A model generated the notes under the pieces. It saw only the letters and a list, made by a program, of their open reading frames with translations. It searched no databases and had not been told where the DNA came from. Positions 94 through 53,097 of a DNA stretch of 64,000 nucleotides are shown here, one piece after another. Each line of letters begins with the position of its first letter. Positions within the stretch are counted from its first letter, which is position 1. Both the position numbers and the translations under genes were made by a program. The stretch comes from a bacterium (lineage in GTDB: Bacteria > Patescibacteriota > Saccharimonadia > UBA4664 > JBBRNT01), in contig JAYUFZ010000008.1 of assembly GCA_043767845.1 (NCBI GenBank), positions 4,242-68,241 of the forward strand, written 5' to 3'.

Positions 94-3000
94 TTGAAAA
101 GCCTTATGGTGCATAGCCACTTCAAACCCTCACGACGCACCGTGGCTCTCACCCTGATTGCTGCCATGATGATTCCGCTCGTCACAGCGCTCATAGTCAC
201 AAAGCCTGCCCGAGCGTCTAGCACTGGCCTCATCTCGTCAGGCAAGGGCGTTCTTGCCTACGGCGACACCGGCAATGCCAACAACCCGCGAGTTAGGCCG
301 TGGGCGAGTGGCGCGACCAGCTTTGGTGCCGAGGGCGCGACTGCCTCTTCAATCACCCCGGCGCAAACCGTCATCAAGCAATCACCGACCAGAATCGATG
401 AGTGGATGATGGCGGTTGCCGACACCAGCGGCAACTTGCAGGTCCTCAAGTCGACAGATGGAGGAACCACTTGGTCTAGCGTCATATCCAGCTTCGCGAT
501 TGGCGGCACCGGTACTACCCGGCGGTTCGACTTAGCTTACGAAAGCAATAGCGGCGACGGCGTACTCATATACTCTAGGAACGCTACAACTAATGAGCTC
601 GGCTATCGCACCTGGGCCGGCTCCAGCTGGACCGCTGAAACCACCTACGACCCGGGCGGCACCGCCAATATCGTCACCTGGGTGGAGATAGGCGAACGAG
701 CCAATAGCGATGAACTTGCCGTCGCCTACCTCACCAATGGCGCGACTGATAACATTGGAGCCTTTATCTGGACCGGGAGTAGCAATACTCCGGGCAACGC
801 CACCGGGACAACCTTTGGAACCTGCGATCAGACGGCTGGTACTCCAGATGGCGTCGATAAATGCATGGACATAAACTACGAATCCGCCTCCGGCCGGCCT
901 GTGATGAGCTGGGGCATATCCAGTGCCGGCAATACCACAAACACTATCCGGGCCTCGCGCTGGGATGGATCGGCGTGGACCACCAATACGCTTAATATTG
1001 GTGCAACCGGTGACGACGGCACCTGGGTTGACTGCGAAAGCGACCCCGATCCGACCAGCTTAATTATCGCTTGCAGTAGTTTCGGGGCTTCGACCGCCGA
1101 CGTCCAGGCTTGGACGGTTAGCTCCGGCACGCTCGGGGTGGCCGGCATGGATATAGATACTGCCGCCCATGCTGCTTCTACCGGTCATGCCTACGTGGCG
1201 ACAACATACCTGTATAGCGGTAGTACGTACCGGGCAATTATGATGTATGCCGACGCCGCCGCCGATACGGGCTTTGACTACTCAACATTTAATGGAACGA
1301 CCTGGGCAGTTGAAGTGCAGGCAGCGGCCGGCTATGCCACCCAAGAAGAAAGTATGATTGCCGTCCGCAATGGAGCAACACCGTCCCAAGCATTAGTGCT
1401 CGTTACTGACGCCAGCAATGACCTCTACGCCGAAAAGATTGATATGGATTCCGCCGGCGTTGTGACCATCGCCCGGGCCGACAGCTCCGCCGCCCTGGAA
1501 ACTGTCGTACCCGCCACCCAAGGCTACCCAATGGACTTTGCTTTCGAGCCAGCGCGCCAATCGAGCGTCATCGACCAAAAAGGCTATATATTCGAAAATG
1601 ACGACGAAGATGTGGCTACAGGCGACGCCTACGATGAGAACACCCAACTGGCCGCCGGCAACACAGCAATGTCCATCCAGCAAGGCCGGCGCGTGAATAT
1701 CCGCGCCCAGCTCAACAATAGCGGCGGCGCGCTGGACGGCCACCCGGTCGGGCTATTTTATGACAAGAATGATGGCTATTGGAATAGAGTACGGACCACT
1801 GCCAAACCCAGGACTAGCGCAGGCAGCTGTGATAATACGTTATGGAACTGCAGTACAATCGATACGACGAATGGATCAGGATCAGAGACATCCGTTGCTA
1901 TCGATCCTAACGGTACACCTTGGATATCGAGCGTCGGCGTTGCAGGTGATAGTCTAGTGGTTGGTAAGTACGTGGGGTCTGGCGGAAGCGGTTGTGTTGC
2001 GGGCAATGGATGGCAATGCTTCCTGATAGATGCAGCGGTCAATACCGTGGGTGATAATTCCATAGCTATGGACTCCGCCGGTAACCCTTGGATTTCATAC
2101 TTTAAAGGCACAGGCACAGCCGCCACCTCTGGCTTGGATGTGGCGCGTTATGTTGGATCAGGCGGCACAGGCTGTTCTGGCACAGTCGCTTGGAGTTGTT
2201 CGATTGTTTTGTCAGGCAATACGACTGCTACAAAAAACTCATTGGCTTTTGATAGGCAAGGCAATGCCTGGGTAGCTTACGCCACGTCTCCCACAGGCAT
2301 TTCGGTTGCAAAGTACTCGATTCAAGCTGCAGCATGGACCAACACGCTCGTCGATGCGACTGTCACTGGTTTCAGCGATATTTCAATTGCTTTTGACAAT
2401 GCAGGCTTGCCCTGGATTGCTTACTATGACGCCAATGCCAGCGACTTGAACTTGCGAATTGCTAGAAACGTTGGCACGGGCGGTTCCGGTTGTACCGGTG
2501 GCTCGTCGGCTTGGACCTGCACTGCCATCGATACTACTGGTGATGTTGGTAAGAGCGCTTCAATAGCTATGGATCCCAACGGATATCCGTGGGTGGCCTA
2601 TGGGGACGTGACAAATACTTCGCTCAAGGTTGCCCGCTACGATCCGGCAGGCGGCTACTCGACATGTGCAGGCGGCGTAACCGACTGGGACTGCGTGACG
2701 GTCGATAACGGAGGCACGAACGGGGCCTATGCCTCTATTGCCTTTGATCCATCAGGCAAGGCCTGGATAGCCTATAACGACGATGGTTCGAACAATGATT
2801 TGTGGACAGCAAGATATGTGGGGGGTTCGGCGGGGACAGGCTGTACAAGCGGTTCGAATAATTGGACCTGTGCGTCGATCAATACCACAGGCTCGCAGGG
2901 TCATTATCCATCAATCGCTTTTGACCGTAACGGAAAAGCCACTATTTCCTACCAGGAATACACGTCAAACACCAACCTGCGGTTTGCCCAAATGGCTTAC

Positions 3001-6851: not shown

Positions 6852-7442
6852 ATGTCAAAAACCGTACGTAACCCGAATAACCGCCCCCGACCCAGACCAG
6901 CTTTTGTGTTACTCATTGCGGCTGTGGCGGGATTGGTAGTTTGGCAGGTAGAAGGGAAGTCACCACTCGCCAGTAGCATAGCTAAGATTCAGCCAGGGAC
7001 ATATCTAGTGAGCTACGTGGACGATGGCGATACCATCCGGGTGCGCGACAGCCTCGGGCACGAAAACACTGTCCGGCTCATCGGCGTTGATACCCCCGAG
7101 GTTAAGGATCCTCGCAAGCCAGTGCAGTGTTTCGGCGAGGAGGCCAGCAACTTCACCAAGCGACAGCTTAGCGGACAGCGCATCCGGCTGGTAAGCGACC
7201 CGCTATCGGCCGACCGCGATAAATACAGCCGCCTGTTGCGCTACGTGTACCTAGGGGACGGCACCTTCTTCAACACCAAGCTGGTGGGCGATGGCTACGC
7301 CTTTGCCTATGTTGTCTTCCCAAACAGCCATCTAAGTGAATTTGTGGATCTGGAGCGCCAGGCGCGAGACCAAAATAAGGGGCTTTGGGCCGGCTGTGGT
7401 GTTAACGATAGCAGTAAGATCAAGCAGACAACTGGGCGCTAG
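6852..7442 (+). CDS. Membrane-anchored thermonuclease (staphylococcal-nuclease-like, SNase fold)
   Basis: Contains the motifs VDGDTIRV…RLIGVDTPE…RYVYL…GYA. An N-terminal TM segment follows a Pro/Arg-rich stretch. The ORF-track start at 6786 overlaps the divergent queA start, so the internal ATG at 6852 (MSKTV…) was chosen. Confidence 0.65.
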   Translation: MSKTVRNPNNRPRPRPAFVLLIAAVAGLVVWQVEGKSPLASSIAKIQPGTYLVSYVDDGDTIRVRDSLGHENTVRLIGVDTPEVKDPRKPVQCFGEEASNFTKRQLSGQRIRLVSDPLSADRDKYSRLLRYVYLGDGTFFNTKLVGDGYAFAYVVFPNSHLSEFVDLERQARDQNKGLWAGCGVNDSSKIKQTTGR

Positions 7443-7829
7443 TTAAGCTTCAGCCCCTGGTTTGCCAATTTTGGCCGAGATAACCACTTGGCGAATCTCG
7501 CCTTCACTATCTTTGATCTGGGTATCGTGGGTTTCATTGTAGTAGGTTACCAGGTGGTGGCTCATAATCTCGCCAAGGTCTTTGAGCTTAAACTTGATCT
7601 CATCCAACTCAGTGTTGATAACCTGGTAGTCTTTATCTTCTTCCAGAATTTTTTTGGCAGCAGTGCGTTTGAGCGTCAGTGTCTTGAGCTCTTCGGCTAT
7701 CGCCCGGTAATCATCATTTTGCTCCATAATATCCTTGAGATCCTGACCCATCCGCTTGGCCTTACCGCGAGTTTCAGAAATTTCGAGCATTAAGCGATGG
7801 ATAGCATCTATTGTCTTTTCGTCTTCCAT
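7443..7829 (-). CDS. Hypothetical coiled-coil protein (charged, Lys/Glu-rich)
   Basis: 128-aa ORF with heptad-like charged sequence. No recognisable catalytic motif. Confidence 0.45.
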   Translation of the reverse strand: MEDEKTIDAIHRLMLEISETRGKAKRMGQDLKDIMEQNDDYRAIAEELKTLTLKRTAAKKILEEDKDYQVINTELDEIKFKLKDLGEIMSHHLVTYYNETHDTQIKDSEGEIRQVVISAKIGKPGAEA

Positions 7830-8008
7830 GTATTCCTTCTTGGTTCTTAATTTGGTTTTACTTTCACTAATCTGTAGCCTATCAGGTGAGAGGGTAGGGC
7901 GTCAATAAGCATAAGAGTCTAAGGAATGAGGCGGAAGTCTACGATATGCGTATCCGCTTTGAAAGCTAGATTCTTATCCTGATTTGTAACAGCCTGTATA
8001 ATACGCAT

Positions 8009-8869
8009 ATGAACTCGATTCCCATTTATCAAACCCAAGGCCTCGGGGCACCACTTTTTCCAAAGGTGCTCTGGAACCGCCCAGTCAGCCGCCACAGCGG
8101 CGGGCGACTTTTGGTGGTCGGCGGACGGCCCGAAGGCGTAGCTCTACTGCAGACCATCTATAGCATGGCCGAAGCCTATGGCCTGGGTGCCTGCGAGCTG
8201 GTAGTGCCCGATGCCCTTACCCGGCTGCTGGCTTCCAGTGGCGTAGCGCACTTCGTGCCGTCAACTCCATCACACACCCTGGCCAAGATTGGCCTTGGCC
8301 AGATTCTCTACAAGGCCGAAGACTACGATGCTATGCTACTAGCGCCATCAGCCGGCAATAATAGCGAGACGTCACTGTTACTCGCAGCAATAATTGGCAA
8401 AACTAACTCCAGGTTGATCATCGCCGATGACGGCCTACCGACAGCTCTGCTTGACCCAACTACACTAGTCCGTCAGTCTCCGACGCTCCTCATACTCACT
8501 ATGCAGGAAGTTTTCAAGCTGGCTGGAGCGCTGAGCATTGGTATACACATTCGACCAGATGGGGGACTCATTAATAAGCTTGAAATAATCGAGGATATCG
8601 TGCGTGAATTGCCGGTCGATTACGTGATCTACGGCGGTACCGATCTAATAATTGCAGCCGGTGGCAACCTCTCGGTTACTAGTCTTATGGTGCCTATTCC
8701 GGGCGCTGCCATTGGCCTCTTCTCGGCCGCTTGGGTTCAAAACCCCTCTCAACCATTCGAAGGCCTAACGACCGCCGCCTATGTCCTAGCCAAAGCCCAA
8801 GCCCTGGCCGAATCGAACAACCCCACCGACCTGCGCAAAACTATCCCCAGGGCTCTGGAGATTGAGTAG
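8009..8869 (+). CDS. Degenerate YjeF C-terminal-like protein (NAD(P)HX dehydratase/carbohydrate kinase fold)
   Basis: Gly-rich blocks LLVVGGRPEG, LIIADDGLPTAL and VIYGGTDLIIAAGGN…PIPGAAIG are spaced like the YjeF_C family. The canonical GGxGD motif is degenerate. Confidence 0.3.
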   Translation: MNSIPIYQTQGLGAPLFPKVLWNRPVSRHSGGRLLVVGGRPEGVALLQTIYSMAEAYGLGACELVVPDALTRLLASSGVAHFVPSTPSHTLAKIGLGQILYKAEDYDAMLLAPSAGNNSETSLLLAAIIGKTNSRLIIADDGLPTALLDPTTLVRQSPTLLILTMQEVFKLAGALSIGIHIRPDGGLINKLEIIEDIVRELPVDYVIYGGTDLIIAAGGNLSVTSLMVPIPGAAIGLFSAAWVQNPSQPFEGLTTAAYVLAKAQALAESNNPTDLRKTIPRALEIE

Positions 8870-8910
8870 CGGCGGCAGCGACTAATAATTCTAATATTCC
8901 GAAAATTCTC

Positions 8911-8946
8911 AAAAAAAAAGGCCCAGGAGATAGCTCCTGGGCTTAA
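8911..8946. terminator. Bidirectional intrinsic terminator between convergent genes
   Basis: An A9 run, then GCCCAGGAG-atag-CTCCTGGGC (9-bp perfect stem), then TTAATT. Confidence 0.6.
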
Positions 8947-10455
8947 TTACCGAATCAGCTTGGCGGGCACTTGGCCTCGGCGCAAGACATCGCCGAAATG
9001 CGAGGTCAAGCCGACTTGCCCAATGAGCTTAATGCCAAAGCCCTCTAACCGGGCTGTGAGGCAAAGCGCACGCAATTTCTCCAACCCCTCTGAGGCGGCA
9101 AACGAGACCCAAGACGCCGGCTCTCCCGGATAGATGATGCTGCCGTAGGACTCCGACGCGCCGACGTGGAGCTGCAAAAGCCAAGCTTGCTGGCCGTCGA
9201 AAGCCCACTCGAAGCGAACTGGCCCATCGAACTTGCCAGTCAGACGCAGCCACAAGTCGTAAACCGCCAGCCTGACTTCTTCCGGCAGTTCAGCACTCGG
9301 CGGCGCGGCGCCTACCATGAAGTTGCTGCCCTCGCCAAGCTGGCCCTCGATCACCACTTCTCCACTGGTAGTAGTTAGCGCCGCCCCCGACCAGCGGCTA
9401 GCGATACCATCCTGGACTAGTATCGAGGCAATGCGCTCTCGATCGGGATCTTCACGAGCCATCAGCTCAAATGGGTCGAGCCAGCCACGCTTTGTAGTAA
9501 ACAATCCCGGTACTTGGACTCTCGGACAGGTTCTGACCCATCGATCGGTATCGGCATTTACTCGCAGGCCAAACTCGAAGTGGGGGACTGTGCGACCGAA
9601 AACGACAGTTCGCGGTACAGCAAACCCCTTCAAATAAGCCAGTAGGATGCCGTAGGCCTTATCGCCGAGGTACTGGCTATACAGATTCGGCCAGCGTGGC
9701 GGCTCAGGACGCGGGGGCAGCGAGCCGCTCAGTTCTTCGGCCTGCCAGATAAGCTGACGTTGAGCTAAGTAGCCAACCGGTCCAGGGTGTACCGAGAACT
9801 CAACCCGAACACTGGAAGCGTAAGGAATATCTAGGTTGAAACCGTAGACTGTGCGCACCAGGGCATGGGCCAAATCGCGACCAAGCACCGCCGTGCCTTC
9901 TTTCTCTACGCAACGCGGCGTGTCACAAGCGGCGAATTCGCACAGGTCTCCATACAATACGCCCGAGAAGCCACCGTCGTTTACATCTATGGTCTCATGG
10001 ATGATGATGTAGTAACCCTGCTGCATCATTTGCTGGGCTGTCTCTGCCGCCAGCTCAGGATTATCGGCACTAAAACCACAACTTGGCCCGTAGTAAAAGG
10101 GATTGCCGTCCGGCTGATCGGGTGTGAACGTCCGAATATTGACGTTGCTAGCACCACCGACATACAAGGCATTTACGGCATCAAGTGGCTGTGGCAGAGT
10201 CGAGTCGGACACTATGCCGCGAACGCGACTAAAGCGCTTGCTACCGTCTGGCGCGTACGACACAAACATGGCGACATTGCCACCACGGGTGGCCACCTGG
10301 TCGATAGCTTCATCTTTCAATACTTGCTGGTCGCTCACTTGCGCTCCTTTGTCGAGGTACAAACGGAATAGGCAGTAGGCTTTGCCTATGTCGTTCAATG
10401 TAACAATAAGGTTACAAAAGCGCAAACTAAACCAGCTTCGGCAAGGCTCACTCAA
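8947..10455 (-). CDS. Hypothetical 502-aa protein whose C-terminal half resembles a PEP/pyruvate-binding (PPDK_N, ATP-grasp-like) domain
   Basis: LGDKAYGILLAYLKGFAVPRTVVF resembles the lGGKaanL…G-PVP-gfvi block. EWAFDGQQAWLLQLH resembles the EWAid…l.ilQaRP block. The gene is GC-rich relative to its neighbours and lies next to tRNA-Leu. Confidence 0.4.
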   Translation of the reverse strand: MSEPCRSWFSLRFCNLIVTLNDIGKAYCLFRLYLDKGAQVSDQQVLKDEAIDQVATRGGNVAMFVSYAPDGSKRFSRVRGIVSDSTLPQPLDAVNALYVGGASNVNIRTFTPDQPDGNPFYYGPSCGFSADNPELAAETAQQMMQQGYYIIIHETIDVNDGGFSGVLYGDLCEFAACDTPRCVEKEGTAVLGRDLAHALVRTVYGFNLDIPYASSVRVEFSVHPGPVGYLAQRQLIWQAEELSGSLPPRPEPPRWPNLYSQYLGDKAYGILLAYLKGFAVPRTVVFGRTVPHFEFGLRVNADTDRWVRTCPRVQVPGLFTTKRGWLDPFELMAREDPDRERIASILVQDGIASRWSGAALTTTSGEVVIEGQLGEGSNFMVGAAPPSAELPEEVRLAVYDLWLRLTGKFDGPVRFEWAFDGQQAWLLQLHVGASESYGSIIYPGEPASWVSFAASEGLEKLRALCLTARLEGFGIKLIGQVGLTSHFGDVLRRGQVPAKLIR

Positions 10456-10481
10456 AAGCCCTCGAAGTTGACTCTGACACT

Positions 10482-10507
10482 AAAAACCACCCAAAGGGGT
10501 GGTTTTT
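10482..10507. terminator. Intrinsic terminator just downstream of the tRNA-Leu 3' end
   Basis: AAAAACCACCC-aaag-GGGTGGTTTTT, a perfect stem flanked by an A-run and a T-run. Confidence 0.6.
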
Positions 10508-10524
10508 ACTACTTCATAATCACA

Positions 10525-10610
10525 TGGTACCGCTGGTCGGAATCGAACCGACACGAGGTTGCCCTCACGAGATTTTGAGTCTCGCGTGTCTACCAATTCC
10601 ACCACAGCGG
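10525..10610 (-). tRNA. tRNA-Leu(CAA), class II with long variable arm, CCA encoded
   Basis: The reverse complement reads GCCGCTGTGGTGGAATTGGTAGACACGCGAGACTCAAAATCTCGTGAGGGCAACCTCGTGTCGGTTCGATTCCGACCAGCGGTACCA. It has a 7-bp acceptor stem, anticodon loop CTCAAAA with anticodon CAA, a long extra arm, and a GTTCGATTC T-loop. Confidence 0.85.
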
Positions 10611-10781
10611 CAAAGGAGCAGGAGAGTTACCATAACTTGTAAAACACTGCGAACTATGCTAGAATTACAGATTGCTGCAGTTCGACTTGGTCAAACTGCC
10701 TGGCATTCATAACCTACTCAGACTATCATATTTATAGCGCCTAGAACAGTCTTTTGCTCACACTAGGCCAGGGACGGTCAC

Positions 10782-11909
10782 ATGCAACAGCCCACCAAAT
10801 CACTTGATATCACACCTATTACGCCGGATCCAGTTGATCCGAGCTATTCGGCTACGCCAGCCCAACACACCCAACCAGCTAGCGAGCTATTTGCCGTAGA
10901 GGCCTACACCGACCGGCCAGAGCTCCACCAAGCACGGGCAGCTATTGCTTCGCTCCACGATGCCCACGGCTCTGTGCCAGCCACCCAGCTCCTCCCAAAC
11001 CAGATCGTCCGACCTATGGTAGCAGTTTCATCAATATCTGGCCCCAGCCTATCACCGCTGGCTAGCGCTACCGCTGGCGAGACACATTTCATGCCACTGA
11101 GCCAACCGACTTTCCCCAAGGCCACCCATCACGATAAGCGTCACGCCACCAAAAAGAACCGCGTCAAGCCGATCATAGCTGCTGTTGGCTCATTTGTGCT
11201 GTTGCTAGCACTTTTTAAGTCACAGATCATTTTCAGCCAGATCAGCTACCTCGGCCAAGCCAATAAAGCCTCAAGCAACGTGCCGGTCATTACCGGTAAT
11301 AACGAGCTTATTTCAGCAGACAGCGTCTTAAATATTCCCAAGATTAATGTCTCAGCGCCAATCGTATTCGTGCCCACGACCGAAGAATCCCAAATCCAAA
11401 AAGCACTCGAGGGAGGCGTTGTCCACTACGGGGGAACCGCCGAGCCAGGCCAAAAAGGCAATGCCGTTATCGTCGGCCATTCTTCGAACGACTGGTGGGA
11501 GCCAGGCAATTACAAATTTGTCTTCGTACTACTCGACAAATTGATCGTGGGCGACACATTTAGCCTGAATTACAAATCGACCAAATACGTCTACGAAGTA
11601 ACTGAGGTGAAAGTCGTGGAGCCAACCGAGCTTAGTGTACTGGCCCCAACCGCCGACCCGACTATTACGCTTATTACCTGCACACCCCCAGGAACCAGCT
11701 GGAAGCGCCTGGTTATTAAGGCTCGGCAAATTAGCCCTTCACCGACCAGCGCAGTGGCGACAACCACCACAGCCACCCCAACGCCAACCGGCGCCCTGCC
11801 CAGCAACCCACCAAGCTTCTTTGAGCAGATCGCCCAGTTCTTTGGCGGACTATTCGGCGGCAATAAAAAGAGTGAGACCCCTTCCGCAGGCAGCCTGCCC
11901 GGGCTTTAG
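10782..11909 (+). CDS. Sortase family transpeptidase with N-terminal Pro-rich region, TM anchor and Pro/Thr-rich C-terminal tail
   Basis: Contains the catalytic TLITC motif, HSSNDWW and a conserved Arg downstream, plus the TM segment IIAAVGSFVLLLALF. Confidence 0.7.
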   Translation: MQQPTKSLDITPITPDPVDPSYSATPAQHTQPASELFAVEAYTDRPELHQARAAIASLHDAHGSVPATQLLPNQIVRPMVAVSSISGPSLSPLASATAGETHFMPLSQPTFPKATHHDKRHATKKNRVKPIIAAVGSFVLLLALFKSQIIFSQISYLGQANKASSNVPVITGNNELISADSVLNIPKINVSAPIVFVPTTEESQIQKALEGGVVHYGGTAEPGQKGNAVIVGHSSNDWWEPGNYKFVFVLLDKLIVGDTFSLNYKSTKYVYEVTEVKVVEPTELSVLAPTADPTITLITCTPPGTSWKRLVIKARQISPSPTSAVATTTTATPTPTGALPSNPPSFFEQIAQFFGGLFGGNKKSETPSAGSLPGL

Positions 11910-41953: not shown

Positions 41954-42000
41954 CTTTTGTAACAATTTGTACTATAATACGCCGTGTGACCGCACCTACG

Positions 42001-42600
42001 ATGACCAAATCCCTTCTCAACCATGATGGAACTCCGATGTCGCCTGAGCAGCATGATCGGGTGCTAGAATCCAATGCAAAATCGCTGTTATCGATCACAC
42101 ACAAGGCCGCAGGCCGAGGTGGTCAGAAGCGAGCTCGCGGCGGCGCCGAACGAACAACCCAAGACTATGAAGAGAAGAACGCCCATCAAGGAGAAGCCTG
42201 TCGTGATTTTAAAAGCTTGTTTGCGCCACTCGGCCAGACTCCTTACCCCTTCAGCAATGCCGATCGGCGGCTCAGAGCTGCGGCGTATGAGATCTACCGA
42301 AACGCCCGAGTTCCGCTATGGCTCAAAACATCAGTGTCTTCGGGTCTGGTACTCGCGACCGATAGCCGGCCTCTTCTAACTATCTTAGGGCGGCAAGCTT
42401 GCGTCACCGACCACTTCATGCCACGAGGTTACTTTGTTCGAATCCGTAGCGACGTGCTTTTTGACGCCATCGCTGGAGACACTCACAAAGCAAGCTTCTT
42501 TTTCAAGCAAGAGGCAACGTATCCTAGGCTCCAATTCATTCCTTGGTCAGACGACTTTGAGCCGCTGCTTGAGGCCTTGCAGCAGACCATTATTATCTAG
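42001..42600 (+). CDS. Hypothetical protein (~200 aa)
   Basis: The ORF has a GTG at 41986. The TATAAT at 41973..41978 suggests a leaderless or short-leader start at the ATG at 42001. A hairpin (42613..42634) and terminator follow. Confidence 0.4.
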   Translation: MTKSLLNHDGTPMSPEQHDRVLESNAKSLLSITHKAAGRGGQKRARGGAERTTQDYEEKNAHQGEACRDFKSLFAPLGQTPYPFSNADRRLRAAAYEIYRNARVPLWLKTSVSSGLVLATDSRPLLTILGRQACVTDHFMPRGYFVRIRSDVLFDAIAGDTHKASFFFKQEATYPRLQFIPWSDDFEPLLEALQQTIII

Positions 42601-45203: not shown

Positions 45204-47528
45204 ATGTCCAAGAAAAAGCGTCGCCATCATAAGAAAAAATTCCAGCCCATCGCTTTTCACGAGAGCCTAGCTGTTTTCGCGCCCGAGCCAGCCAGCTTGA
45301 CGCTGCAAATGCCGTTCCTCGAGGAATCGCTAGCTATTGGCTATGACATCTTTAGCACCTGGGCTCGGCCAAGACTGGAAATCGCCAGCCTATACACTGT
45401 TGCCACCTGGCACGACACGCGCATGGTGATCCGGCCGTTTTTTGCTGCCTTCAAAGCCAAGCGCTTGATTATTGCCTTTGTATTACTGAGTGTCATCGGC
45501 GCTAGTGGTACTGGCGTCTTTGCCTATCGGATGGCCCAAGCCACCATCGCCAAGTACCAATCTCAGATAACTAGCCCAAATATTCTGCTGAACGTTAACC
45601 GCAAGGGTACAACCATCACCGACCGTGACGGCCAAATCCTGTACCAAGGTTATGGCGCGACTGAGCAGGTGCCTGTCAAAATTGATGACCTGCCACCAGC
45701 GCTCATCCAGGCCACGCTGGCCGCCGAAGATCCGAGCTTCTACGACCATGCCGGCTTCTCCTGGAAAGGAACAGCCCGGGCGATATTTGAAGACATCAAA
45801 GCCCATGGCAAAGTCCAGGGTGGTTCGACTATCACCCAGCAACTTATCAAGAACAGTCTATTAACCTCCCAAAAAAGCTACCAGCGCAAATTTGAAGAAA
45901 TAGTCATGTCGGTGGTCCTCGAGCAGCGCTATAGCAAACGCCAGATACTGGAAATGTACCTCAACAAAGTCTACTACGGGCAGGGGAGCTACGGAGTAGG
46001 TAGCGCCGCACAAACCTATTTCCATAAAAACGCCAAGGATTTGACGCTCGATGAGTCGGCCTTACTGGCTGGCCTACCGCTGGGGCCTAGCCGCTTCGAC
46101 CCCAGCCTCAGCCCCAGTGCCGCCAAAGCCCGCCGCGACTTCGTGCTAGAGGAAATGGTCGGCGACGGCTTCATCACGACTGCCCAATCGCACGCCGCTA
46201 CGGCAAAGACTGTGACGGGCTACGAGCGCGTAGTGGCTATCAAGTCCCCACACTTCGTGTTTTATGTCCTTTCCGAGCTGCGCCGGCTCTACGGCGACAA
46301 AGCTGTCGAGGAGGGAGGCATCCTCGTCAAAACTTCGCTCAGCTCCGCCGATCAAGCATTGGGGGAACGACTGGTAGCCGAGCAAGTCGCCCGGATTAGT
46401 GCCGCGCATCACGCCACCAACGGCGGCCTCATATCACTTGATCCCAAGACTGGGGATATTTTGGCTATGGTTGGTAGTATCGACTACAACTATCCAGGCT
46501 TCGGTTCAGTCAATGTCACCACCTCCAAGCTCCAGCCTGGCTCAAGCTTTAAACCCATCGGTTATGCCGCGGCCATGAAAAAAGGCTGGAACGGCGCGAC
46601 GCTCATCGATGACTCACCATTCCAGATAACCCAGCCAGACGGCACAATCTATCGCCCCGCCGACTACGATGGGCGTTTCCGTGGCAAGGTTTTATTGCGC
46701 CGGGCCCTCGGTAACTCACTGAACATCCCTGCCCTCCACGCCATTCAGTTTGCCGGCATTGAATCAGTCATATCAACGGCTAGCGACCTCGGTATTACCA
46801 CGCTTGGCGACAGCTCCAACTATGGCATTAGCCTCATCTTGGGTAGCGCCGAGGTCAAACCCCTCGATATGGCGGCGGTTTATGCCACATTTGCCACTGG
46901 CGGTCTCAGGGTGTCACCAAACGGCATTTTGCAGGTGCTCGACCGCAACGGCAAAGACATTACCAAGCCCAGAGCAGCAGCGGTCCAAGTCCTCGACCCA
47001 CGGATTGTCGGCATGCTCACCGATATCTTGAGCGACAATAATGCCCGCATCGAGGAGTTTGGCCCCAATTCACCGCTCAAGCTCTCAAGGCCAGTGGCCG
47101 CCAAAACCGGCACCACTAACGATTTCCGTGACAACTGGACAGTCGGCTACACCCCCAACCTGGTAACGGCCGTCTGGGTAGGCAATAACGACCACACGCC
47201 AATGATCAGTATTGATGGTATAACAGGCGCGGCGCCAATCTGGCATGATTATATGGAAGCTGTCCTCGCTTCAATGCCGCTTCTGGGTTTCGAGAAACCG
47301 GCCGGGCTCGTCCAGCTCCAGATCTGTGCTAGCGATGGCGGCCTGGCCAACCCCTGGGACCCAAAGACAGGGGAGTGGTTTATTACCGATAACCTACCCA
47401 CCAAGCAATGTAGTACCAAGGAACCGGCTAAGCCCGCCGATCCAGCGCCAATCGAACCCATTATTGTGCCTATCCAATCAGGAAAACCAGGTAAACAGTC
47501 AGGTTTCTGGCCCCCGGGCTTAAATTGA
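45204..47528 (+). CDS. Class A penicillin-binding protein (bifunctional glycosyltransferase/transpeptidase, PBP1A-type)
   Basis: GT51 motifs EDPSFYDHAGF and GGSTITQQL. Transpeptidase motifs SSFKP, SLN and KTGTT. N-terminal TM. Confidence 0.85.
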   Translation: MSKKKRRHHKKKFQPIAFHESLAVFAPEPASLTLQMPFLEESLAIGYDIFSTWARPRLEIASLYTVATWHDTRMVIRPFFAAFKAKRLIIAFVLLSVIGASGTGVFAYRMAQATIAKYQSQITSPNILLNVNRKGTTITDRDGQILYQGYGATEQVPVKIDDLPPALIQATLAAEDPSFYDHAGFSWKGTARAIFEDIKAHGKVQGGSTITQQLIKNSLLTSQKSYQRKFEEIVMSVVLEQRYSKRQILEMYLNKVYYGQGSYGVGSAAQTYFHKNAKDLTLDESALLAGLPLGPSRFDPSLSPSAAKARRDFVLEEMVGDGFITTAQSHAATAKTVTGYERVVAIKSPHFVFYVLSELRRLYGDKAVEEGGILVKTSLSSADQALGERLVAEQVARISAAHHATNGGLISLDPKTGDILAMVGSIDYNYPGFGSVNVTTSKLQPGSSFKPIGYAAAMKKGWNGATLIDDSPFQITQPDGTIYRPADYDGRFRGKVLLRRALGNSLNIPALHAIQFAGIESVISTASDLGITTLGDSSNYGISLILGSAEVKPLDMAAVYATFATGGLRVSPNGILQVLDRNGKDITKPRAAAVQVLDPRIVGMLTDILSDNNARIEEFGPNSPLKLSRPVAAKTGTTNDFRDNWTVGYTPNLVTAVWVGNNDHTPMISIDGITGAAPIWHDYMEAVLASMPLLGFEKPAGLVQLQICASDGGLANPWDPKTGEWFITDNLPTKQCSTKEPAKPADPAPIEPIIVPIQSGKPGKQSGFWPPGLN

Positions 47529-47537
47529 AAAATACTG

Positions 47538-47566
47538 TTGACACAGCTTATGACTTATTTTATAAT
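47538..47566 (+). promoter_or_regulatory. Near-consensus sigma70-type promoter
   Basis: TTGACA, 17 nt, TATAAT, located 35 nt upstream of the GTG start at 47602. Confidence 0.5.
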
Positions 47567-47601
47567 TCTATACAGTCAATAGAGGGGTAGAAGGTAATTA
47601 C

Positions 47602-48636
47602 GTGTCCCAATCAACTACAGCTACGACAACTAAAATAGATTACAAGCAAGCAGCTCAATCCGCCCTCAAGCTCCTACGCCGTGATCGCGACCGCCAAATC
47701 CTAGCCAAGCGCTTCGGGTTTGGTCTCATTAAACGCCAAACTCTTGAAAAGATCGGGCGTGATTTCGGTATCACCCGTGAGCGTGTCCGCCAGATTGAAA
47801 AAGCTGCGCTAGCCAAGCTCAAAACCGGTGCTGCCAGCGAAATCACTAGCACGTCAACGGCTATTAAGTCGGTCGTTGCCGACCACGGCGGCATTGCGCC
47901 ACTAGAAGTCATCGCCACAGCCCTTGGCGCCACCAACCCGGGTGAACAAGCCTACATCGTCTTTCTAGCCGAATTGTCACCAGAAGTTGAAGTTATTGAA
48001 GAAAACGACTACTTACGACCCGGCCTCGGACTTTTGCCCAGTATTACCGAAAAAGCCACCCGCCGCTGGTCAGCAGCCCTAGCCGACATCGTCACCGAGA
48101 TTGGTAAGCCCACCACCCTGGCCAAAATCGCCGCCAAAACCGACATCCCCCTCGAACCGAAAGCACTCTCGAACCTGGCCAAAATGAGCAAAGCACTAGC
48201 AGAGCTCGATGGCAAATGGGGACTCATGAGTTGGCCAGAGGTCAATCCCAAGAGCATCCGCGACAAAACCTACCTAGTGCTACACAAACATGGCCGCCCA
48301 TTGCATTTCTCTGACATCGCCACCCACATCCACAAAACTGGCCTGAATAAGCGCCAGGTCACTGTCCAAGCAGTCCACAACGAACTCATCAAAGATGGTC
48401 GCTTCGTGCTTATTGGCCGCGGCATCTACGCCCTGGCCGACTGGGGATACACTCCCGGCACCGTAGCCGATATTATTGCTGACATCTTGCGTGATGAAGC
48501 CCCACTGCACAAAGACGAAATCGTCCGCCGGGTGCTCATCAAACGCCAGGTCAAGACCACTACCATTATATTAAATCTACAGGAGAAACAGCAGTTCGTT
48601 AGGGTCGCCAAAGCCACTTATACACTGGCCGTCTAA
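47602..48636 (+). CDS. DNA-binding protein with N-terminal sigma-70 region-4-type HTH (no region 2) and ~270-aa C-terminal extension
   Basis: LAKRFGFGLIKRQTLEKIGRDFGITRERVRQIEKAALAKL is a region-4 / LuxR-type HTH. The stop overlaps the start of the next gene (TAATG). Confidence 0.55.
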   Translation: MSQSTTATTTKIDYKQAAQSALKLLRRDRDRQILAKRFGFGLIKRQTLEKIGRDFGITRERVRQIEKAALAKLKTGAASEITSTSTAIKSVVADHGGIAPLEVIATALGATNPGEQAYIVFLAELSPEVEVIEENDYLRPGLGLLPSITEKATRRWSAALADIVTEIGKPTTLAKIAAKTDIPLEPKALSNLAKMSKALAELDGKWGLMSWPEVNPKSIRDKTYLVLHKHGRPLHFSDIATHIHKTGLNKRQVTVQAVHNELIKDGRFVLIGRGIYALADWGYTPGTVADIIADILRDEAPLHKDEIVRRVLIKRQVKTTTIILNLQEKQQFVRVAKATYTLAV

Positions 48637-51611
48637 TGGATCTGGTTCTCTCTCTTCTTTCTAGCATTATCCAACTGATCGGTCTCATCCTCTTCAAATT
48701 CTACGGATGGGTCGTTGTGGTTGCTGTACTTGGTTATTTAATCTGGCAAAATCGCCGTCGGGAGGTTTGGGTGAACGGTAGCGAATACACACTCTTAAAA
48801 ATAGGCGTGCCTCGTGAGAACGAGAAGAAGGAATTATCGGCCGAGCAAATGTTCGCCAGTTTGCACGGCATTTTGCGTTCGGCCGAAGAGTTAGCCAAGG
48901 ATGGCGCTCTCCAAGATCATCTTAGTTTCGAGATCGCCTCGATCAAAAACCAGATTCAATTCTATGTCTGGACGCCAAAACACCTCAAAGACTTCGTGGT
49001 CGGCCAGATCTATGCCCAATACCCCAGTGTGCATATTGAAGAGGACGCAGTCGACTATACCACCCCCGAGCCGGGCCAAAACCACAGCCTGGGAACCGAA
49101 CTCAAACTCGTCAAGAATGAAGTATTGCCAATAAAAGTTTTTGCCTCTTTCGAAGTCGACCCGCTGGCCGGCATTACTGCCGTGATGGCCAAGCTCGACC
49201 AGCAAAGTGAAGAAATGTGGGTTCAAATCCTGGCCCGCCCAACCGACGACGCTTGGCGTGACCGGGGGCTCAAATACATCGACGAGCTCAAGAGTGGCAA
49301 GAAGACAAGTATTATGGATCAGCTTATCAAGATGCTCATCGACCTGCCAATGCACGTATTAAGCAACCTGTTCAGCGGACTGGCTACGCCACCCGAAGCC
49401 AAGAAGGAAGAGAAAAAAGAAGAAAAGAAAGAATTATCCATCGGCCAGGCGTCGCTAGCCAAGGGCGCTGAAGAGAAAATCAATAAGCTTGGCTTTGAGA
49501 TCAAGATCCGCATAGCCTACATGGGGCCAGACGAAACCCTCGCCAAACAACGTATCCAGGCTATCGTAGGCGGCTTCAAACAATTCAACACCAATAACCT
49601 CAATGGCTTTACCTCAAGCGGTATGAACACTACCCAGAGCTTCATCGACGACTACCGAGCCCGGCTCTTTCTCGATGACGGCTATGTCTTAAACATTGAG
49701 GAATTAGCTGGCCTCTACCATTTGCCGCACAAAAGCGTCGAAACGCCAAACCTGGCCTGGGCAACGAGCAAAAATGCCGAGCCTCCATTTACATTGCCAG
49801 GCGAGGGGAGTGTGCCAGACGCCGAGCTGAGCTTGATAGGCCTCACCAACTTCCGTGGCCACCAGATCAAATTCGGTATTAAGCGAGCGGATCGTGGTCG
49901 CCATCTCTACATTATCGGCCAGACCGGAACCGGTAAGTCTTTCTTACTGCAATTGTTGATGCTTTCTGACCTGTACCACAATGTTGGTATGGCCGTCGTC
50001 GATCCCCACGGTGATCTCGCAACCGATATCATGCGATATATCCCTGAGCATCGGCTTAAGGATGTCGTCTATTTCAACCCGGCCGATCGCGATTTCCCGA
50101 TCGCCTTCAACCCGATGGAAGTCACTGACCCAAACTTCAAGAATATGATCTCCTCAGAGCTTGTCGGCGTGCTCAAGCGGCTCTTTGAGTCCTGGGGCCC
50201 TAGGTTGGAGTACATCCTGCGGTTCACCATACTAGCGCTACTTGATTATCCAAATGCCACGATGCTCGGCATTACCCGGATGTTGACCGAGAAGAATTTC
50301 CGCAACCGAGTTATCAAGCAGATCAAAGACCCGATCGTCAAAAACTTCTGGGTTACTGAGTTTGCTTCATGGAACGATAAGTTTGCCTCCGAAGCTGTTG
50401 CCCCGGTACTCAATAAAGTCGGCGCTTTCACCGCCAATCCACTCGTCCGCAACATCATTGGCCAGCCGAAGAGTGGCGTGAACCTACGTAAAATTATGGA
50501 CGAGGGCAAGATCCTAGTAGTCAACTTATCAACTGGTCTCGTGGGCGAAGACAATGCCGGCATCCTCGGAGCCCTGATGGTCACCAAGATCCAGCTGGCT
50601 GCTATGAGCCGGGCCGATATCGTTGATAAGAATATGCGCCGCCCATTCTACCTTTATGTTGATGAGTTCCAGAACTTTGCCACCGACTCATTTGCGGTCA
50701 TCCTGTCGGAGGCTCGTAAGTATGGGCTCAATCTAACAGTCGCCAACCAATATGTCTCACAGATGCCTGAAACAGTCCGCGATGCGGTCTTTGGTAACGT
50801 CGGTTCAATGATCAGCATGCGCGTTGGTGCCGCCGATGGCACAATCTTGGGCAAATACTTTGAGCCAACCTTTTTGGCCAACGACCTCATAACCCTCAAC
50901 AATCAAAATTGTCTGATAAGCATGAGTATCGACGGTGAGAAAACCACGCCGTTTAGTGCTGTAACTTTGCGCATGCCAACGCCGAGTGCCGACCATACCG
51001 ACCAGATTATCGCCCTTACTCGTGAGAAATTTGCTTCCAGCCGGGCAGAGGTTGAGGACAAAATTGCCAAATGGACCGAGGGTGCCGATGACCAAGCCGA
51101 GAGTGGCGAGCCAGCCGACGGTGCAGCAGCCGATCCAACAGATAAGCCCAATCTGTTGATAACTGAGCAAAAACCGAACAATCCATTTCTGGCTGGGCTC
51201 AAGAACCCCGAAGCTGGCAGTATCCCAGCCCCAACCATAAGTGAGAACAGGGGAGGCCAGGGGAGTAATCGGCCGGTTTCTAAGAATGTGAATGATGTCT
51301 ATCGGCCGGCCGAGCATCGACGTGAGAACACTCCTTCGAACGCGCCAGCCCCGGCCACAAGCTATGTCGAAGACCGCAGTCAAGCAGCAGCGGCAGTTCC
51401 AACGCAAGCGGCCCCGCAATACATCGAGCAAGTGCCAACCCAGCAGCCCACAAGCACCCCATTCCTGCATAACGCCGACGAGTTAGCCCTTATAGAAGCC
51501 ACCCGGCGGGCTATCGCCAACTTGCCGACGCTAGAAAGCCCTCTCAACGCCCCTCAGCAGCCTGTGGCCGCTGGCAACATTCATGACGGGCAATCAACCA
51601 ACTTGCGTTAG
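48636..51611 (+). CDS. Membrane-anchored FtsK/HerA-superfamily P-loop ATPase (VirD4/TraG coupling-protein-like or HerA-like), 991 aa, with Lys/Glu-rich insert and Pro/Gln-rich C-terminal tail
   Basis: N-terminal TM. Walker A LYIIGQTGTGKSF followed by VVDPHGDL. Walker B FYLYVDEFQNF. The SEARKYGLNLTVANQ Arg/Gln motifs are typical of TraD/VirD4/HerA. Confidence 0.6.
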   Translation: MDLVLSLLSSIIQLIGLILFKFYGWVVVVAVLGYLIWQNRRREVWVNGSEYTLLKIGVPRENEKKELSAEQMFASLHGILRSAEELAKDGALQDHLSFEIASIKNQIQFYVWTPKHLKDFVVGQIYAQYPSVHIEEDAVDYTTPEPGQNHSLGTELKLVKNEVLPIKVFASFEVDPLAGITAVMAKLDQQSEEMWVQILARPTDDAWRDRGLKYIDELKSGKKTSIMDQLIKMLIDLPMHVLSNLFSGLATPPEAKKEEKKEEKKELSIGQASLAKGAEEKINKLGFEIKIRIAYMGPDETLAKQRIQAIVGGFKQFNTNNLNGFTSSGMNTTQSFIDDYRARLFLDDGYVLNIEELAGLYHLPHKSVETPNLAWATSKNAEPPFTLPGEGSVPDAELSLIGLTNFRGHQIKFGIKRADRGRHLYIIGQTGTGKSFLLQLLMLSDLYHNVGMAVVDPHGDLATDIMRYIPEHRLKDVVYFNPADRDFPIAFNPMEVTDPNFKNMISSELVGVLKRLFESWGPRLEYILRFTILALLDYPNATMLGITRMLTEKNFRNRVIKQIKDPIVKNFWVTEFASWNDKFASEAVAPVLNKVGAFTANPLVRNIIGQPKSGVNLRKIMDEGKILVVNLSTGLVGEDNAGILGALMVTKIQLAAMSRADIVDKNMRRPFYLYVDEFQNFATDSFAVILSEARKYGLNLTVANQYVSQMPETVRDAVFGNVGSMISMRVGAADGTILGKYFEPTFLANDLITLNNQNCLISMSIDGEKTTPFSAVTLRMPTPSADHTDQIIALTREKFASSRAEVEDKIAKWTEGADDQAESGEPADGAAADPTDKPNLLITEQKPNNPFLAGLKNPEAGSIPAPTISENRGGQGSNRPVSKNVNDVYRPAEHRRENTPSNAPAPATSYVEDRSQAAAAVPTQAAPQYIEQVPTQQPTSTPFLHNADELALIEATRRAIANLPTLESPLNAPQQPVAAGNIHDGQSTNLR

Positions 51612-51639
51612 AATGGCCCTTAAAACGGCTGCAAGTGTC

Positions 51640-51677
51640 AAAATACCCCCCAAGCAATGCAAGGCGGGTATTTTGTA
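51640..51677 (+). terminator. Intrinsic terminator
   Basis: AAAATACCC-…-GGGTATTTTGTAT. Confidence 0.55.
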
Positions 51678-51857
51678 TCTGTCCTACAGATGGGATCATG
51701 CCAACACTTTTATCCAGCGTGGAGATTGATAACACCTGCACACTCAACCGTCAAAGACTAGTTCGGTTTTTGTTTGCTAGGCAGAAAGCGTTTGGTGCAT
51801 TTACAAACGATGCAATATGACGTCTAGAGCCAGGGGACAACGTGGGATACAGCAAGG

Positions 51858-51930
51858 ATAACAAAACACCGGAGACTACATAGAAATTACTCAAGAGTGG
51901 GGCAATTGCACTTCTCCGGTGTTTTGTTAT
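51858..51930. repeat. Perfect 17-bp inverted repeat with 39-nt spacer
   Basis: ATAACAAAACACCGGAG…CTCCGGTGTTTTGTTAT. No T-run on either side. Confidence 0.7.
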
Positions 51931-52275
51931 TAGTGTCGCACAATGTATATTTTGCGTCTTAGTAAATAGATAAGCAAAGACGACTAGTAGTGCCTCTCAT
52001 GGCCATGTCGCATGCTGTATTATACCTGTTGCAAGCCATTATTCGTGCATTTTAGAAAACACTATAAGTATTTGTTAAGTCGCTAAAACACCATTTAAGC
52101 GACTAAATTGACGCTGGAGCCAGGCCCGTCAAAATATCGCTTTTCATTTGAGAATTCTGATATTTGGAATGAGTATTATTTACCACGGCCATAATGATTT
52201 TGCGATATGCCATGACTCTAAGAACAAATACCGAACAGTAGGGAGGAGTACCCGAACGCCGATTTGGGCTGGCAT

Positions 52276-53097
52276 TTACTTGTAGTAGGCTTTGCCGGCA
52301 ATACGGAGGTCGATGTACTCACTTGGCGGGGGCTTCTTAAGTCTGGCCAGCTCGGCCAGCACCCGGTTGAGGCTGGCTAAAGCATCCTGGACGCTACGCG
52401 TCGTATCAAATTTTACAACATAGCCTTTTGATGTTGTAACATAAACTTCTGTCGTAGTGTCTGGGATGCGCATGCCGGTAATTCCCAGGCCGGTTTGGCC
52501 AACCATGGCCTGCACTAGGCCTGTACAAAATTCCACGAACCTCGCCCCCACTACCCGCTCCCCAACCTTCACTGGTAGGTTTGTCCCATCGAGAACCACG
52601 GGGAGCTTACTCCCCTCCCCTGCTACCTCGGCTATGACGGTGCCATCAATATCCAGCTGGTAACTTTTGTTTGCCGATTTCCAGATCAGGCTCGGTATCC
52701 GTTCGGTCACCCGCAGCTCGAGGCCATTAGGCCACAACCGCCCGACCTCAACAGATTTGATCAGTAGCAAATGTTCCTGCAACTGTTTGGCTAACTGATC
52801 GGTATCTACAGTCGTGATATTGCCCGACCAGAGGCTTTTTTGCAATTCACTGCGAGTGGCGCTCTCGAGCTGGGCAGTTTCGATGCTTTTATTGCCTTTA
52901 ATAACAATTCGCCGAATACTGAACAGCTGTGACCAGCCGATACAGACCAGGAGGGTCACAAAAGCCGCCAAACTCCAGCGTAGATTAAGCCTTGGTAATC
53001 TATGACTCCGGCGGTTGCTCGGCCTGTTCTGGCGGCCGTACATCGACGTCGAGGCTGGCCGACGCATATTTACTACCTTGCGCCGACTCTCACTCAT
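52276..53097 (-). CDS. ftsQ: Cell-division protein FtsQ/DivIB-like (TM plus POTRA)
   Basis: TM segment LAAFVTLLVCIGW followed by RIVIKGNKSIETAQLE, a POTRA-like block. The ORF-track start at 53214 would overlap murG by 125 nt, so the internal ATG at 53097 was chosen. Confidence 0.5.
   Translation of the reverse strand: MSESRRKVVNMRRPASTSMYGRQNRPSNRRSHRLPRLNLRWSLAAFVTLLVCIGWSQLFSIRRIVIKGNKSIETAQLESATRSELQKSLWSGNITTVDTDQLAKQLQEHLLLIKSVEVGRLWPNGLELRVTERIPSLIWKSANKSYQLDIDGTVIAEVAGEGSKLPVVLDGTNLPVKVGERVVGARFVEFCTGLVQAMVGQTGLGITGMRIPDTTTEVYVTTSKGYVVKFDTTRSVQDALASLNRVLAELARLKKPPPSEYIDLRIAGKAYYK

Follow-up and report, generated by a model that had tools for sequence, protein, structure and literature searches.

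A helix-turn-helix protein, DUF8128 and a coupling-protein-type ATPase: a possible nucleic-acid translocase module of Patescibacteria

A gene pair at positions 47,538 to 51,677 of a 64,000-nucleotide stretch of a Saccharimonadia genome (contig JAYUFZ010000008.1 of assembly GCA_043767845.1; this whole stretch is hereafter called the window) raises the question of what a helix-turn-helix (HTH) protein and a membrane-anchored ATPase do together. A preliminary description had stated that no characterised system matches the pair, and the literature searched supports this statement: we found no paper on the operon, on the DUF8128 domain of the ATPase or on the HTH partner, and searches for DUF8128, and for HARE-HTH together with Patescibacteria, returned nothing. 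The ATPase family was partly anticipated, being already known as the orphan 'T4CP homologue' (type IV coupling protein) of Patescibacteria (Quinonero-Coronel et al. 2025, PMC12102498); the operon, the split and fused forms of DUF8128, its VirB4-like fold and the conserved consensus promoter are apparently undescribed. We hypothesized that a module of three parts (the HTH protein, DUF8128 and a T4CP-type motor), fixed in the chromosome and found across Patescibacteria, is present here in its Saccharimonadia form and acts as a membrane nucleic-acid translocase, and this is the explanation that we tentatively favour. The module was recognised by its architecture, its homologies, its co-conservation and its independence from the gene clusters of type IV secretion systems (T4SS).

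We compared the motor of the ATPase with known P-loop proteins by structure prediction with AlphaFold2 (AF2), Foldseek and profile searches. The AF2 model of residues 381–800 (pLDDT 91.3) matched TrwB over its full length, including the all-alpha domain (E 2e-13, TM 0.67, 413 columns), followed by Cagbeta and DotL; HerA ranked lower (TM 0.49–0.58), and no VirB4 chain was among the top 50 fold matches. The family profile aligned with TrwB from Walker A to the Arg finger (hhalign, Prob 96.6%, E 7e-10, 263 columns), whereas its alignment with TrwK was restricted to 18 columns of the P-loop (Prob 5.7%). Among the Pfam models, DUF87 passed its cut-off (36.9 bits versus 23.2) and TrwB_AAD_bind did so at the borderline (21.7 versus 20.5); scores under the cut-offs were obtained for T4SS-DNA_transf (PF02534, 14.5 versus 20.1), FtsK_SpoIIIE (21.3 versus 24, P-loop stretch only), the NCBIfam models SXT_TraD (37.7 versus 366) and conju_CD1115 (34.3 versus 250) and TraG, and those for HerA_C and the NCBIfam HerA models were far under. 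The hallmarks noted earlier (GxTGxGKS, VDPHGDL and the Arg/Gln finger) were all present on translation, and the Walker A Lys, the Walker B Asp-Glu and the Arg/Gln residues were invariant among homologues. A fold and profile match to TrwB that spans the motor, with the TrwK match confined to the P-loop, shows that the motor is of T4CP (TrwB/VirD4) type and not of HerA or FtsK type. In the preliminary description the ATPase was called FtsK/HerA/VirD4-like; the VirD4 part of that name can be kept, and the other two fit clearly worse by fold and profile scores.

The relatives of the motor differ accordingly in how much they have in common with it. HerA–NurA, HerA–Sir2, FtsK/SpoIIIE and Streptomyces TraB belong, like the ATPase, to the ASCE P-loop superfamily, as reflected in the DUF87 match, and they suggest by analogy a hexameric pump, bound to membrane or DNA, in which a winged helix recognises DNA; however, the module lacks the HAS barrel, a NurA or Sir2 partner and a gamma domain in cis, and its fold scores with these proteins are lower. 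T4CPs (TrwB of R388, VirD4, TraD, Cagbeta and DotL) have in common with it an N-terminal two-helix membrane anchor, a RecA-like nucleotide-binding domain and an all-alpha domain between Walker A and Walker B. In contrast to T4CPs, about 340 extra residues, DUF8128, lie between anchor and motor in the module or are encoded by a separate gene; moreover, the module has no relaxase and no adjacent T4SS genes, and it is a core chromosomal module, passed on vertically at a fixed position.

The N-terminal part of the ATPase had been described as a transmembrane segment followed by a region of about 400 residues, not ATPase-like, with a K/E insert. A hydrophobic anchor is indeed present (Kyte-Doolittle >1.6 over residues 1–37), but AF2 modelled it as a helical hairpin (helices 2–21 and 24–48) and not as a single transmembrane helix; the hairpin and the QNRRRE that follows it would put the remainder of the protein in the cytoplasm. 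The insert is present as well, and the region around it is a defined Pfam family, DUF8128. The assignments of PF26449 (DUF8128) and PF01935 are those precomputed on the identical public protein, and PF26449 was likewise precomputed on all 120 top homologues; our own Pfam search did not report this model. In the AF2 model of this part (pLDDT 81.6, with a low-confidence loop at 251–263), the only significant fold matches in the PDB were TrwK/VirB4 chains (Foldseek, E 1.5e-5 to 6e-4, TMq 0.29–0.38), and a HAS-barrel fold was not seen among the fold matches of the N-terminal region or the motor. VirB4 (TrwK) also has a membrane-associated N-terminal segment, an alpha/beta domain of about 350 residues and a C-terminal P-loop motor, and natural VirB3–VirB4 fusions exist according to annotations. 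The module differs from VirB4 in that its motor is closer to T4CPs, and in Patescibacteria the T4SS cluster encodes a bona fide VirB4 of its own.

The HTH protein carries a sigma-70 region 4 (Sigma70_r4, 5.8e-15) and a HARE-HTH winged helix (2.3e-10), and Pfam found neither sigma region 2 nor region 3 in it. The NCBIfam RpoD, RpoS and ECF models covered 60–75 residues, the region 4 stretch only, at 30–54 bits versus cut-offs of 43–800. Because these models cover so small a part of the protein and lie far under their cut-offs, it is not a sigma factor. In S. epibionticum, SEML1_0294, annotated as 'RpoS', has Sigma70_r4 at 27–72, HARE-HTH at 225–283 and four DNA-binding-type domains; it lies directly upstream of SEML1_0293, a T4CP-like protein of 921 residues, and both genes are downstream of dprA and topA (Wang et al. 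2023, PMC10633639). We infer from architecture and synteny that SEML1_0293 and SEML1_0294 are the orthologues of our ATPase and HTH protein, respectively. The absence of region 2 and the scores under the cut-offs mean that the label 'RpoS' of SEML1_0294 is a mis-annotation; S. epibionticum has one true sigma factor.

We then asked how far the parts are conserved together. Homologues of the ATPase numbered more than 7,500 at 90% clustering, and 6,408 representatives at 50% identity were found below 1e-30. Among 75 evaluable species-representative Saccharimonadia loci, 66 had the HTH gene upstream in the orientation of the ATPase, 61 of them at most 300 nt away (median spacer 45 nt). Fused ATPases that were only 34–36% identical retained the order der-pth-dprA-topA-HTH-ATPase; the adjacency inside Saccharimonadia could in principle be inherited synteny. 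An apparent in-frame fusion of the HTH protein with the ATPase (locus L014) was ruled out, as its open reading frame (ORF) spans 398 masked N bases.

DUF8128 and the motor, one polypeptide in Saccharimonadia, are encoded by adjacent genes in other classes. Many representatives about 50% identical in the motor were complete proteins without the N-terminal 400 residues, and this split-type family has more than 8,000 members in Falkowbacteria, Uhrbacteria, Moranbacteria and other Parcubacteria. In three such genomes outside Saccharimonadia, a Sigma70_r4/HARE-HTH gene was followed by a stand-alone DUF8128 gene (462–557 residues) and then by the ATPase, and the genes around them (secDF, DUF2207 and others) were not related to those at the Saccharimonadia loci. 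The HTH protein was 34–35% identical to full-length homologues from other classes of the candidate phyla radiation (CPR; E 6e-60 and 8e-59), and stand-alone DUF8128 aligned with residues 5–388 of the fused protein (31% identity, E 5e-49), ending exactly at the linker. In a metagenome search seeded with the HTH protein, 19 full-length matching loci were obtained, 16 of them with enough downstream sequence, and DUF8128 was immediately downstream in 13 of the 16 (GC 29–53%); the ATPase in these 13 was fused in three, adjacent in four and lost to the contig end in two. T4SS Pfam families were absent from the nine annotated module contexts.

Because the genes are split and fused and recur in different contexts, these results argue for HTH–DUF8128–ATPase as a functional unit, of which HTH–DUF8128 is the tightest link. 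The preliminary description had asked whether the pair is conserved as a unit and had named two contrary outcomes: an HTH gene that is not co-conserved, and an ATPase that groups with the canonical VirD4 of a complete T4SS elsewhere in the genome. The HTH gene was retained both in Saccharimonadia and, in the three-gene form, in other classes, and the ATPase lay outside T4SS clusters in every context examined.

We propose that the module works as follows. The HTH protein, with its sigma-70 region 4 and the HARE-HTH winged helices after it, would be made from the conserved consensus promoter; DUF8128, of VirB4-NTD-like fold (NTD, N-terminal domain), would be held in the membrane by the helical hairpin; and the TrwB/VirD4-type P-loop motor, with its all-alpha insert and intact catalytic residues, would complete a cytoplasm-facing, membrane-anchored hexameric NTPase. 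This hexamer would translocate or remodel nucleic acid, as T4CPs and FtsK do, and the HTH protein may bind DNA and either load or stimulate the motor or autoregulate the operon, by analogy with TrwA–TrwB of R388. Neither a relaxase nor a dedicated T4SS channel would take part. In R388, the gene of a small DNA-binding protein is likewise located directly upstream of trwB, and the role of TrwA at TrwB is a precedent for the pairing of an HTH protein with a motor; the partner in the module, however, is a sigma4/winged-helix protein and not a ribbon-helix-helix protein.

Several results weigh against this explanation. DNA binding, hexamer formation and translocation by the module are predictions by analogy. 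Eight Saccharimonadia loci had no HTH gene in the flank, among them a clade with topA immediately before the ATPase; among the HTH-seeded loci, the ATPase was elsewhere or undetected within about 5 kb in 4 of the 13 with HTH–DUF8128, and the HTH gene stood alone, with neither DUF8128 nor the ATPase nearby, in 3 of the 16. The likeness of DUF8128 to the VirB4-NTD fold comes from Foldseek at a low TM (0.37) and did not extend to the sequence level: hmmsearch of the family profile against PDB sequences was negative for this domain, hhalign of a DUF8128-only profile with a 10-sequence VirB4-NTD profile gave Prob 0.08%, the N-terminal domain of TrwK was not aligned by the family profile, and the Pfam model of the VirB4 N-terminal domain (CagE_TrbE_VirB) found no match on the ATPase. 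We do not take these negatives as disproof of homology, because the fold search was specific. Around the conserved promoter, an operator search revealed no conservation beyond the two hexamers.

The genetic record of S. epibionticum also bears on this point. Both SEML1_0293 and SEML1_0294 are flagged as core and Patescibacteria-enriched (PMC10633639, Table S1). In transposon insertion sequencing (Tn-seq), SEML1_0294 was essential at all time points, with 24 insertions in the input and 1, 1 and 2 thereafter, whereas SEML1_0293 was called non-essential, with 87–120 insertion sites (PMC10633639); the reads of SEML1_0293 dropped from 5817 to 2940 and 1372 (PMC10633639, Table S1). Since the two orthologues differ in essentiality, the pair is not strictly co-functional, which is a further point against our explanation and means that the HTH protein has a further role of its own or restrains the operon.

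A bolder version, which we regard as unlikely, is that the module is a self-contained, CPR-specific translocation machine of intermediate VirB4/VirD4 architecture, without a classical T4SS channel, in which the HTH protein is the essential subunit for DNA recognition and control. If so, nucleic acid from the host or the chromosome could be moved by it across the membrane of the epibiont or along it, and a VirB3/VirB4-NTD-like membrane part would be joined to a T4CP-like motor. Independently of this version, the architecture of the module has implications for how the ATPase lineages of VirB4 and VirD4 are related. A large part of bacterial diversity belongs to Patescibacteria, whose exchange of macromolecules with hosts is unresolved, and a recent preprint leaves the route of host RNA uptake open. 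The module is near-universal in the phylum, to judge from T4CP homologues in 96% of genomes, and until now had attracted attention only as a stray 'T4CP hit'. In S. epibionticum, the sole genetically tractable member, one of its genes is essential. With the conserved three-part operon and its dedicated DNA-binding partner, a DUF8128 of VirB4-NTD-like fold and independence from T4SS loci, the stray annotation becomes a defined and testable system.

It is also conceivable, albeit rather doubtful, that the ATPase is the dispersed coupling protein of the Patescibacteria T4SS, bringing substrates to a channel whose virB4 cluster lies elsewhere in the genome; the HTH protein would then be a regulator or an adaptor for substrates. 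The motor has a fold and sequence of T4CP type, the T4SS and the ATPase family are both near-universal in the phylum, and neither a coupling protein nor a relaxase is recognisable in the essential T4SS cluster of S. epibionticum, just as Patescibacteria clusters lack a recognisable T4CP (PMC10633639). In addition, T4CP genes are often away from virB4 in other systems, too (PMC12102498). A total of 5,713 T4CP homologues were reported in 2,918 of 3,035 Patescibacteria genomes (96%), 148 of them near virB4, and the authors considered exaptation possible (PMC12102498). These orphan homologues and SEML1_0293 are the same family as our ATPase, with the Pfam matches PF10412, PF12696 and PF01935, the length class and the dprA-topA-HTH-ATPase order in common; the two papers (PMC12102498, PMC10633639) treat a lone T4CP match and, in the literature searched, do not describe the HTH partner, the split and fusion of DUF8128, the VirB4-like fold or the promoter. 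However, the T4SS genes of S. epibionticum are essential, and its ATPase orthologue tolerates insertions at 87–120 sites; in other words, the ATPase is dispensable where the T4SS is not. Most Patescibacteria have no relaxases (PMC12102498), which also speaks against a dispersed coupling protein, as do the exaptation kept possible by those authors, the lack of a VirB4-NTD-like DUF8128 domain and of a conserved sigma4/wHTH partner in canonical T4CPs, and the contexts examined, in which the module was never beside T4SS genes.

With regard to the number of such homologues, we observed that in L083, from a genome labelled Berkelbacteria, the fused gene (7920–10835) is immediately preceded by the C-terminal portion of another T4CP-like ATPase (6900–7919, TDSFATILSEARKYRLNLNITNQY). 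This indicates tandem ATPase paralogues in that genome and may relate to the approximately two T4CP homologues per genome in PMC12102498.

Alternatively, the pair might be mainly regulatory, which we judge unlikely: the HTH protein, with its delta-like HARE domain, would be a transcription factor that mimics sigma region 4, acts on –35 elements or RNA polymerase (RNAP) and represses its own very strong promoter; it would be essential either because its loss derepresses a membrane ATPase, too much of which is harmful, or because many other genes are under its control. Region 4 matches the RpoD/RpoS models (E 1e-13), and HARE-HTH matches the NCBIfam model of the RNAP delta N-terminal domain (5.4e-7, under its cut-off). 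The upstream gene of the pair is essential and the downstream gene is not (SEML1_0294 and SEML1_0293), the pattern of repressor/toxic-effector pairs. HTH homologues without the module nearby (L106, L109 and L110) also fit a regulator. The promoter itself suggests a need for tight control. It had been described as near-consensus and proved to be a perfect match, the sole 12/12 site in the window. At the same position in 65 Saccharimonadia loci, we found 12/12 in 25 and 11/12 in 30, and at least 11 was reached by 5 of 325 shuffled controls; about 29 of the 48 perfect promoter sites in 1.2 Mb of loci were that of the HTH gene, and split-type loci retained TTGACA with a good –10. The promoter spacer is not conserved among loci, and therefore no operator is evident, which tells against a repressor. 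Moreover, RNAP binding by the HTH protein is putative, the tightest adjacency across classes, HTH–DUF8128, points to a physical or functional partnership rather than to a general regulator, and the ATPase's own job would be left unexplained.

Two observations accompany these loci. In many Saccharimonadia loci (including L025, L032–L034, L036 and L051), a 'catGCTATAATg' element is conserved about 25–40 nt upstream of the –35 of the HTH promoter, and it may be a tandem or divergent –10 element. The HTH homologues of L109 and L110 (GC 31–32%) align slightly better under genetic code 25 and form short broken ORFs under code 11, which suggests recoding of the Gracilibacteria/Absconditabacteria type; no DUF8128 or ATPase was detected near them.

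An ATPase that serves as the cytoplasmic DNA-uptake motor of natural transformation, a ComFA analogue working with ComEC and DprA, is improbable. This possibility arises from dprA-topA, located directly upstream throughout Saccharimonadia, from the lack of an annotated ComFA in S. epibionticum, from the non-essentiality that the ATPase has in common with comEC, and from the ComB T4SS of H. pylori as a precedent for T4SS-type ATPases in uptake (cited in PMC11665869). The nearby dprA had been noted before, and it is kept across Saccharimonadia; however, this is class-level synteny, lost in other classes, as seen in the three split-type genomes. The adjacency of dprA and topA is also common in bacteria irrespective of the module, which weighs against this role. 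In the Tn-seq data, comEC insertions were neutral (reads 12586, 11147 and 12301), unlike the progressively depleted ATPase mutants, and an uptake motor leaves the essential HTH partner unexplained.

The defence and segregation roles suggested earlier, an anti-phage module (HerA-like or MADS mad8-like, with a DNA-sensing HTH protein) or an FtsK-like motor linked to the division cluster, are highly improbable: PADLOC gave a mad8 match at 3e-18 (P-loop core only), weak HerA and DndH matches and a match of the HTH protein to MzaA through region 4, and in Saccharimonadia the dcw cluster and a dif-like site are neighbours of the gene, but the family is core (96% of genomes) and fixed among housekeeping genes, unlike defence islands, the window contains no nuclease, Sir2 or other mad partners, the HerA matches are weaker than the T4CP matches with no HAS-barrel fold seen, neither the dcw cluster nor the dif-like site adjoins the gene in other classes, and a separate, canonical essential FtsK with a gamma domain occurs in S. 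epibionticum. The housekeeping context and core status largely rule out defence, and that FtsK rules out a replacement of FtsK by the ATPase.

Table 1. Positions of the promoter, genes, domains, motifs and terminator-like hairpin of the HTH–ATPase locus in the window (aa, amino acid residues of the encoded protein)
Feature	Position	Strand	Evidence or remark
Sigma-70 consensus promoter TTGACA-17-TATAAT	47538–47566	+	12/12 score, upstream of HTH gene
HTH protein gene	47602–48636	+	ORF, GTG start, 344 aa
Sigma-70 region 4 (aa 28–74)	47683–47823	+	PF04545, 55 bits versus cut-off 24.1
HARE-HTH winged helix (aa 220–281)	48259–48444	+	PF05066, 41.1 bits versus cut-off 25.9
Fused DUF8128–T4CP-like ATPase gene	48636–51611	+	ORF, ATG start, 991 aa
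N-terminal hydrophobic hairpin (aa 3–37)	48642–48746	+	Kyte-Doolittle and AF2; QNRRRE follows
DUF8128 alpha/beta domain (aa ~49–388)	48780–49799	+	Precomputed Pfam PF26449
Flexible K/E-rich loop in DUF8128 (aa 255–266), AKKEEKKEEKKE	49398–49433	+	Checked by translation
Conserved junction motif LNIEELAxLYHLP in DUF8128	49689–49727	+	
T4CP-type P-loop motor (aa 400–800)	49833–51035	+	AF2, Foldseek, hhalign
Walker A GQTGTGKS (aa 428–435)	49917–49940	+	Translation
VDPHGDL motif of the ATPase (aa 455–461)		+	Translation
All-alpha insert of the motor	50130–50459	+	
Walker B YLYVDEF (aa 672–678)	50649–50669	+	Translation
Arg-finger/Gln region EARKYGLNLTVANQ (aa 692–705)	50709–50750	+	Translation
A/P/E/N-rich low-complexity C-terminal tail (aa 801–991)	51036–51608	+	Composition
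Conserved tail motif EQKPNxxFLxxLKNP	51165–51209	+	
Terminator-like hairpin with T-run	51639–51677	+	RNA fold, 28 nt past ATPase stop codon

The ORF calls and translation at 48636 reproduced the TAATG reported earlier, in which the stop codon of the HTH gene and the start codon of the ATPase have one base, A, in common. The translational coupling proposed on this basis is not a family trait: such an overlap occurred in 1 of 66 other loci (median spacer 45 nt), and coupling as a family feature was ruled out. The terminator claimed to follow the pair is plausible as a prediction; a hairpin with a T-run is present, and the RNA fold of 51612–51700 had –27.7 kcal/mol (z = –2.37 versus shuffles). 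The terminator scanner, with a loop limit of 8 nt, did not report this hairpin, the loop of which is 11 nt. In the C-terminal tail of the ATPase, the columns K-P-N...L..L.NP were at least 90% conserved among 80 homologues and the rest of the tail was not; split-type relatives have a zinc ribbon, CxxC-x17-CxxC (PF23477), at this position.

Pfam annotation of 30 other ORFs in the window showed that housekeeping and envelope genes flank the pair. Upstream are those for QueA, MreB, glycosyltransferases, GltX, histidine kinases, ScpA, RluB and DacA, together with Der, Pth, DprA, TopA and PBP1a, and downstream is the convergent dcw cluster (FtsQ, MurG, FtsW, MraY and PBP2). As the preliminary description had it, no T4SS, NurA or Sir2 gene was found among these ORFs, nor was a paralogue of the ATPase, and Rfam gave no matches in 47400–52400. 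A giant protein of 1,707 residues at the left end of the window (94–5217, +) had no Pfam match at E ≤ 0.001. Between dprA and topA lies an ORF of 204 residues (41986–42600, +), also without a Pfam match; at the equivalent spot S. epibionticum has SEML1_0297, a gene of the CDP-alcohol phosphatidyltransferase family.

Downstream of the ATPase, 320 nt past its stop codon, we observed a near-palindromic 11-6-11 site at approximately 51932–51960 (core 51935–51958), GTCGCACAA-TGTATA-TTTTGCGTC, also written AGTGTCGCACAA-TGTATA-TTTTGCGTCTT, which is unique in the window and which we take to resemble a Xer/dif-type recombination site. When up to three mismatches were allowed, each of 41 Saccharimonadia loci had a single copy, invariably past the ATPase and about 200–475 nt from the 3΄ end of ftsQ, where the genes converge; its arms are conserved and its central 6 bp are variable. 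The GC skew showed no flip at this site, so that its assignment to a terminus would be tentative. No such site was found near the split-type modules of other classes, which makes a cis element intrinsic to the module unlikely; an RNA was ruled out because the flanks are unrelated. The site probably represents a chromosomal element that is specific to the lineage and does not belong to the module. Immediately to its left, at 51868–51926, a 12-bp inverted repeat (AAAACACCGGAG ... CTCCGGTGTTTT) with a loop of about 35 nt is terminator-like on both strands and has no Rfam match. Because a promoter-like site on the minus strand (52078–52049, 10/12) faces this terminator-like repeat, a small transcript is possible.

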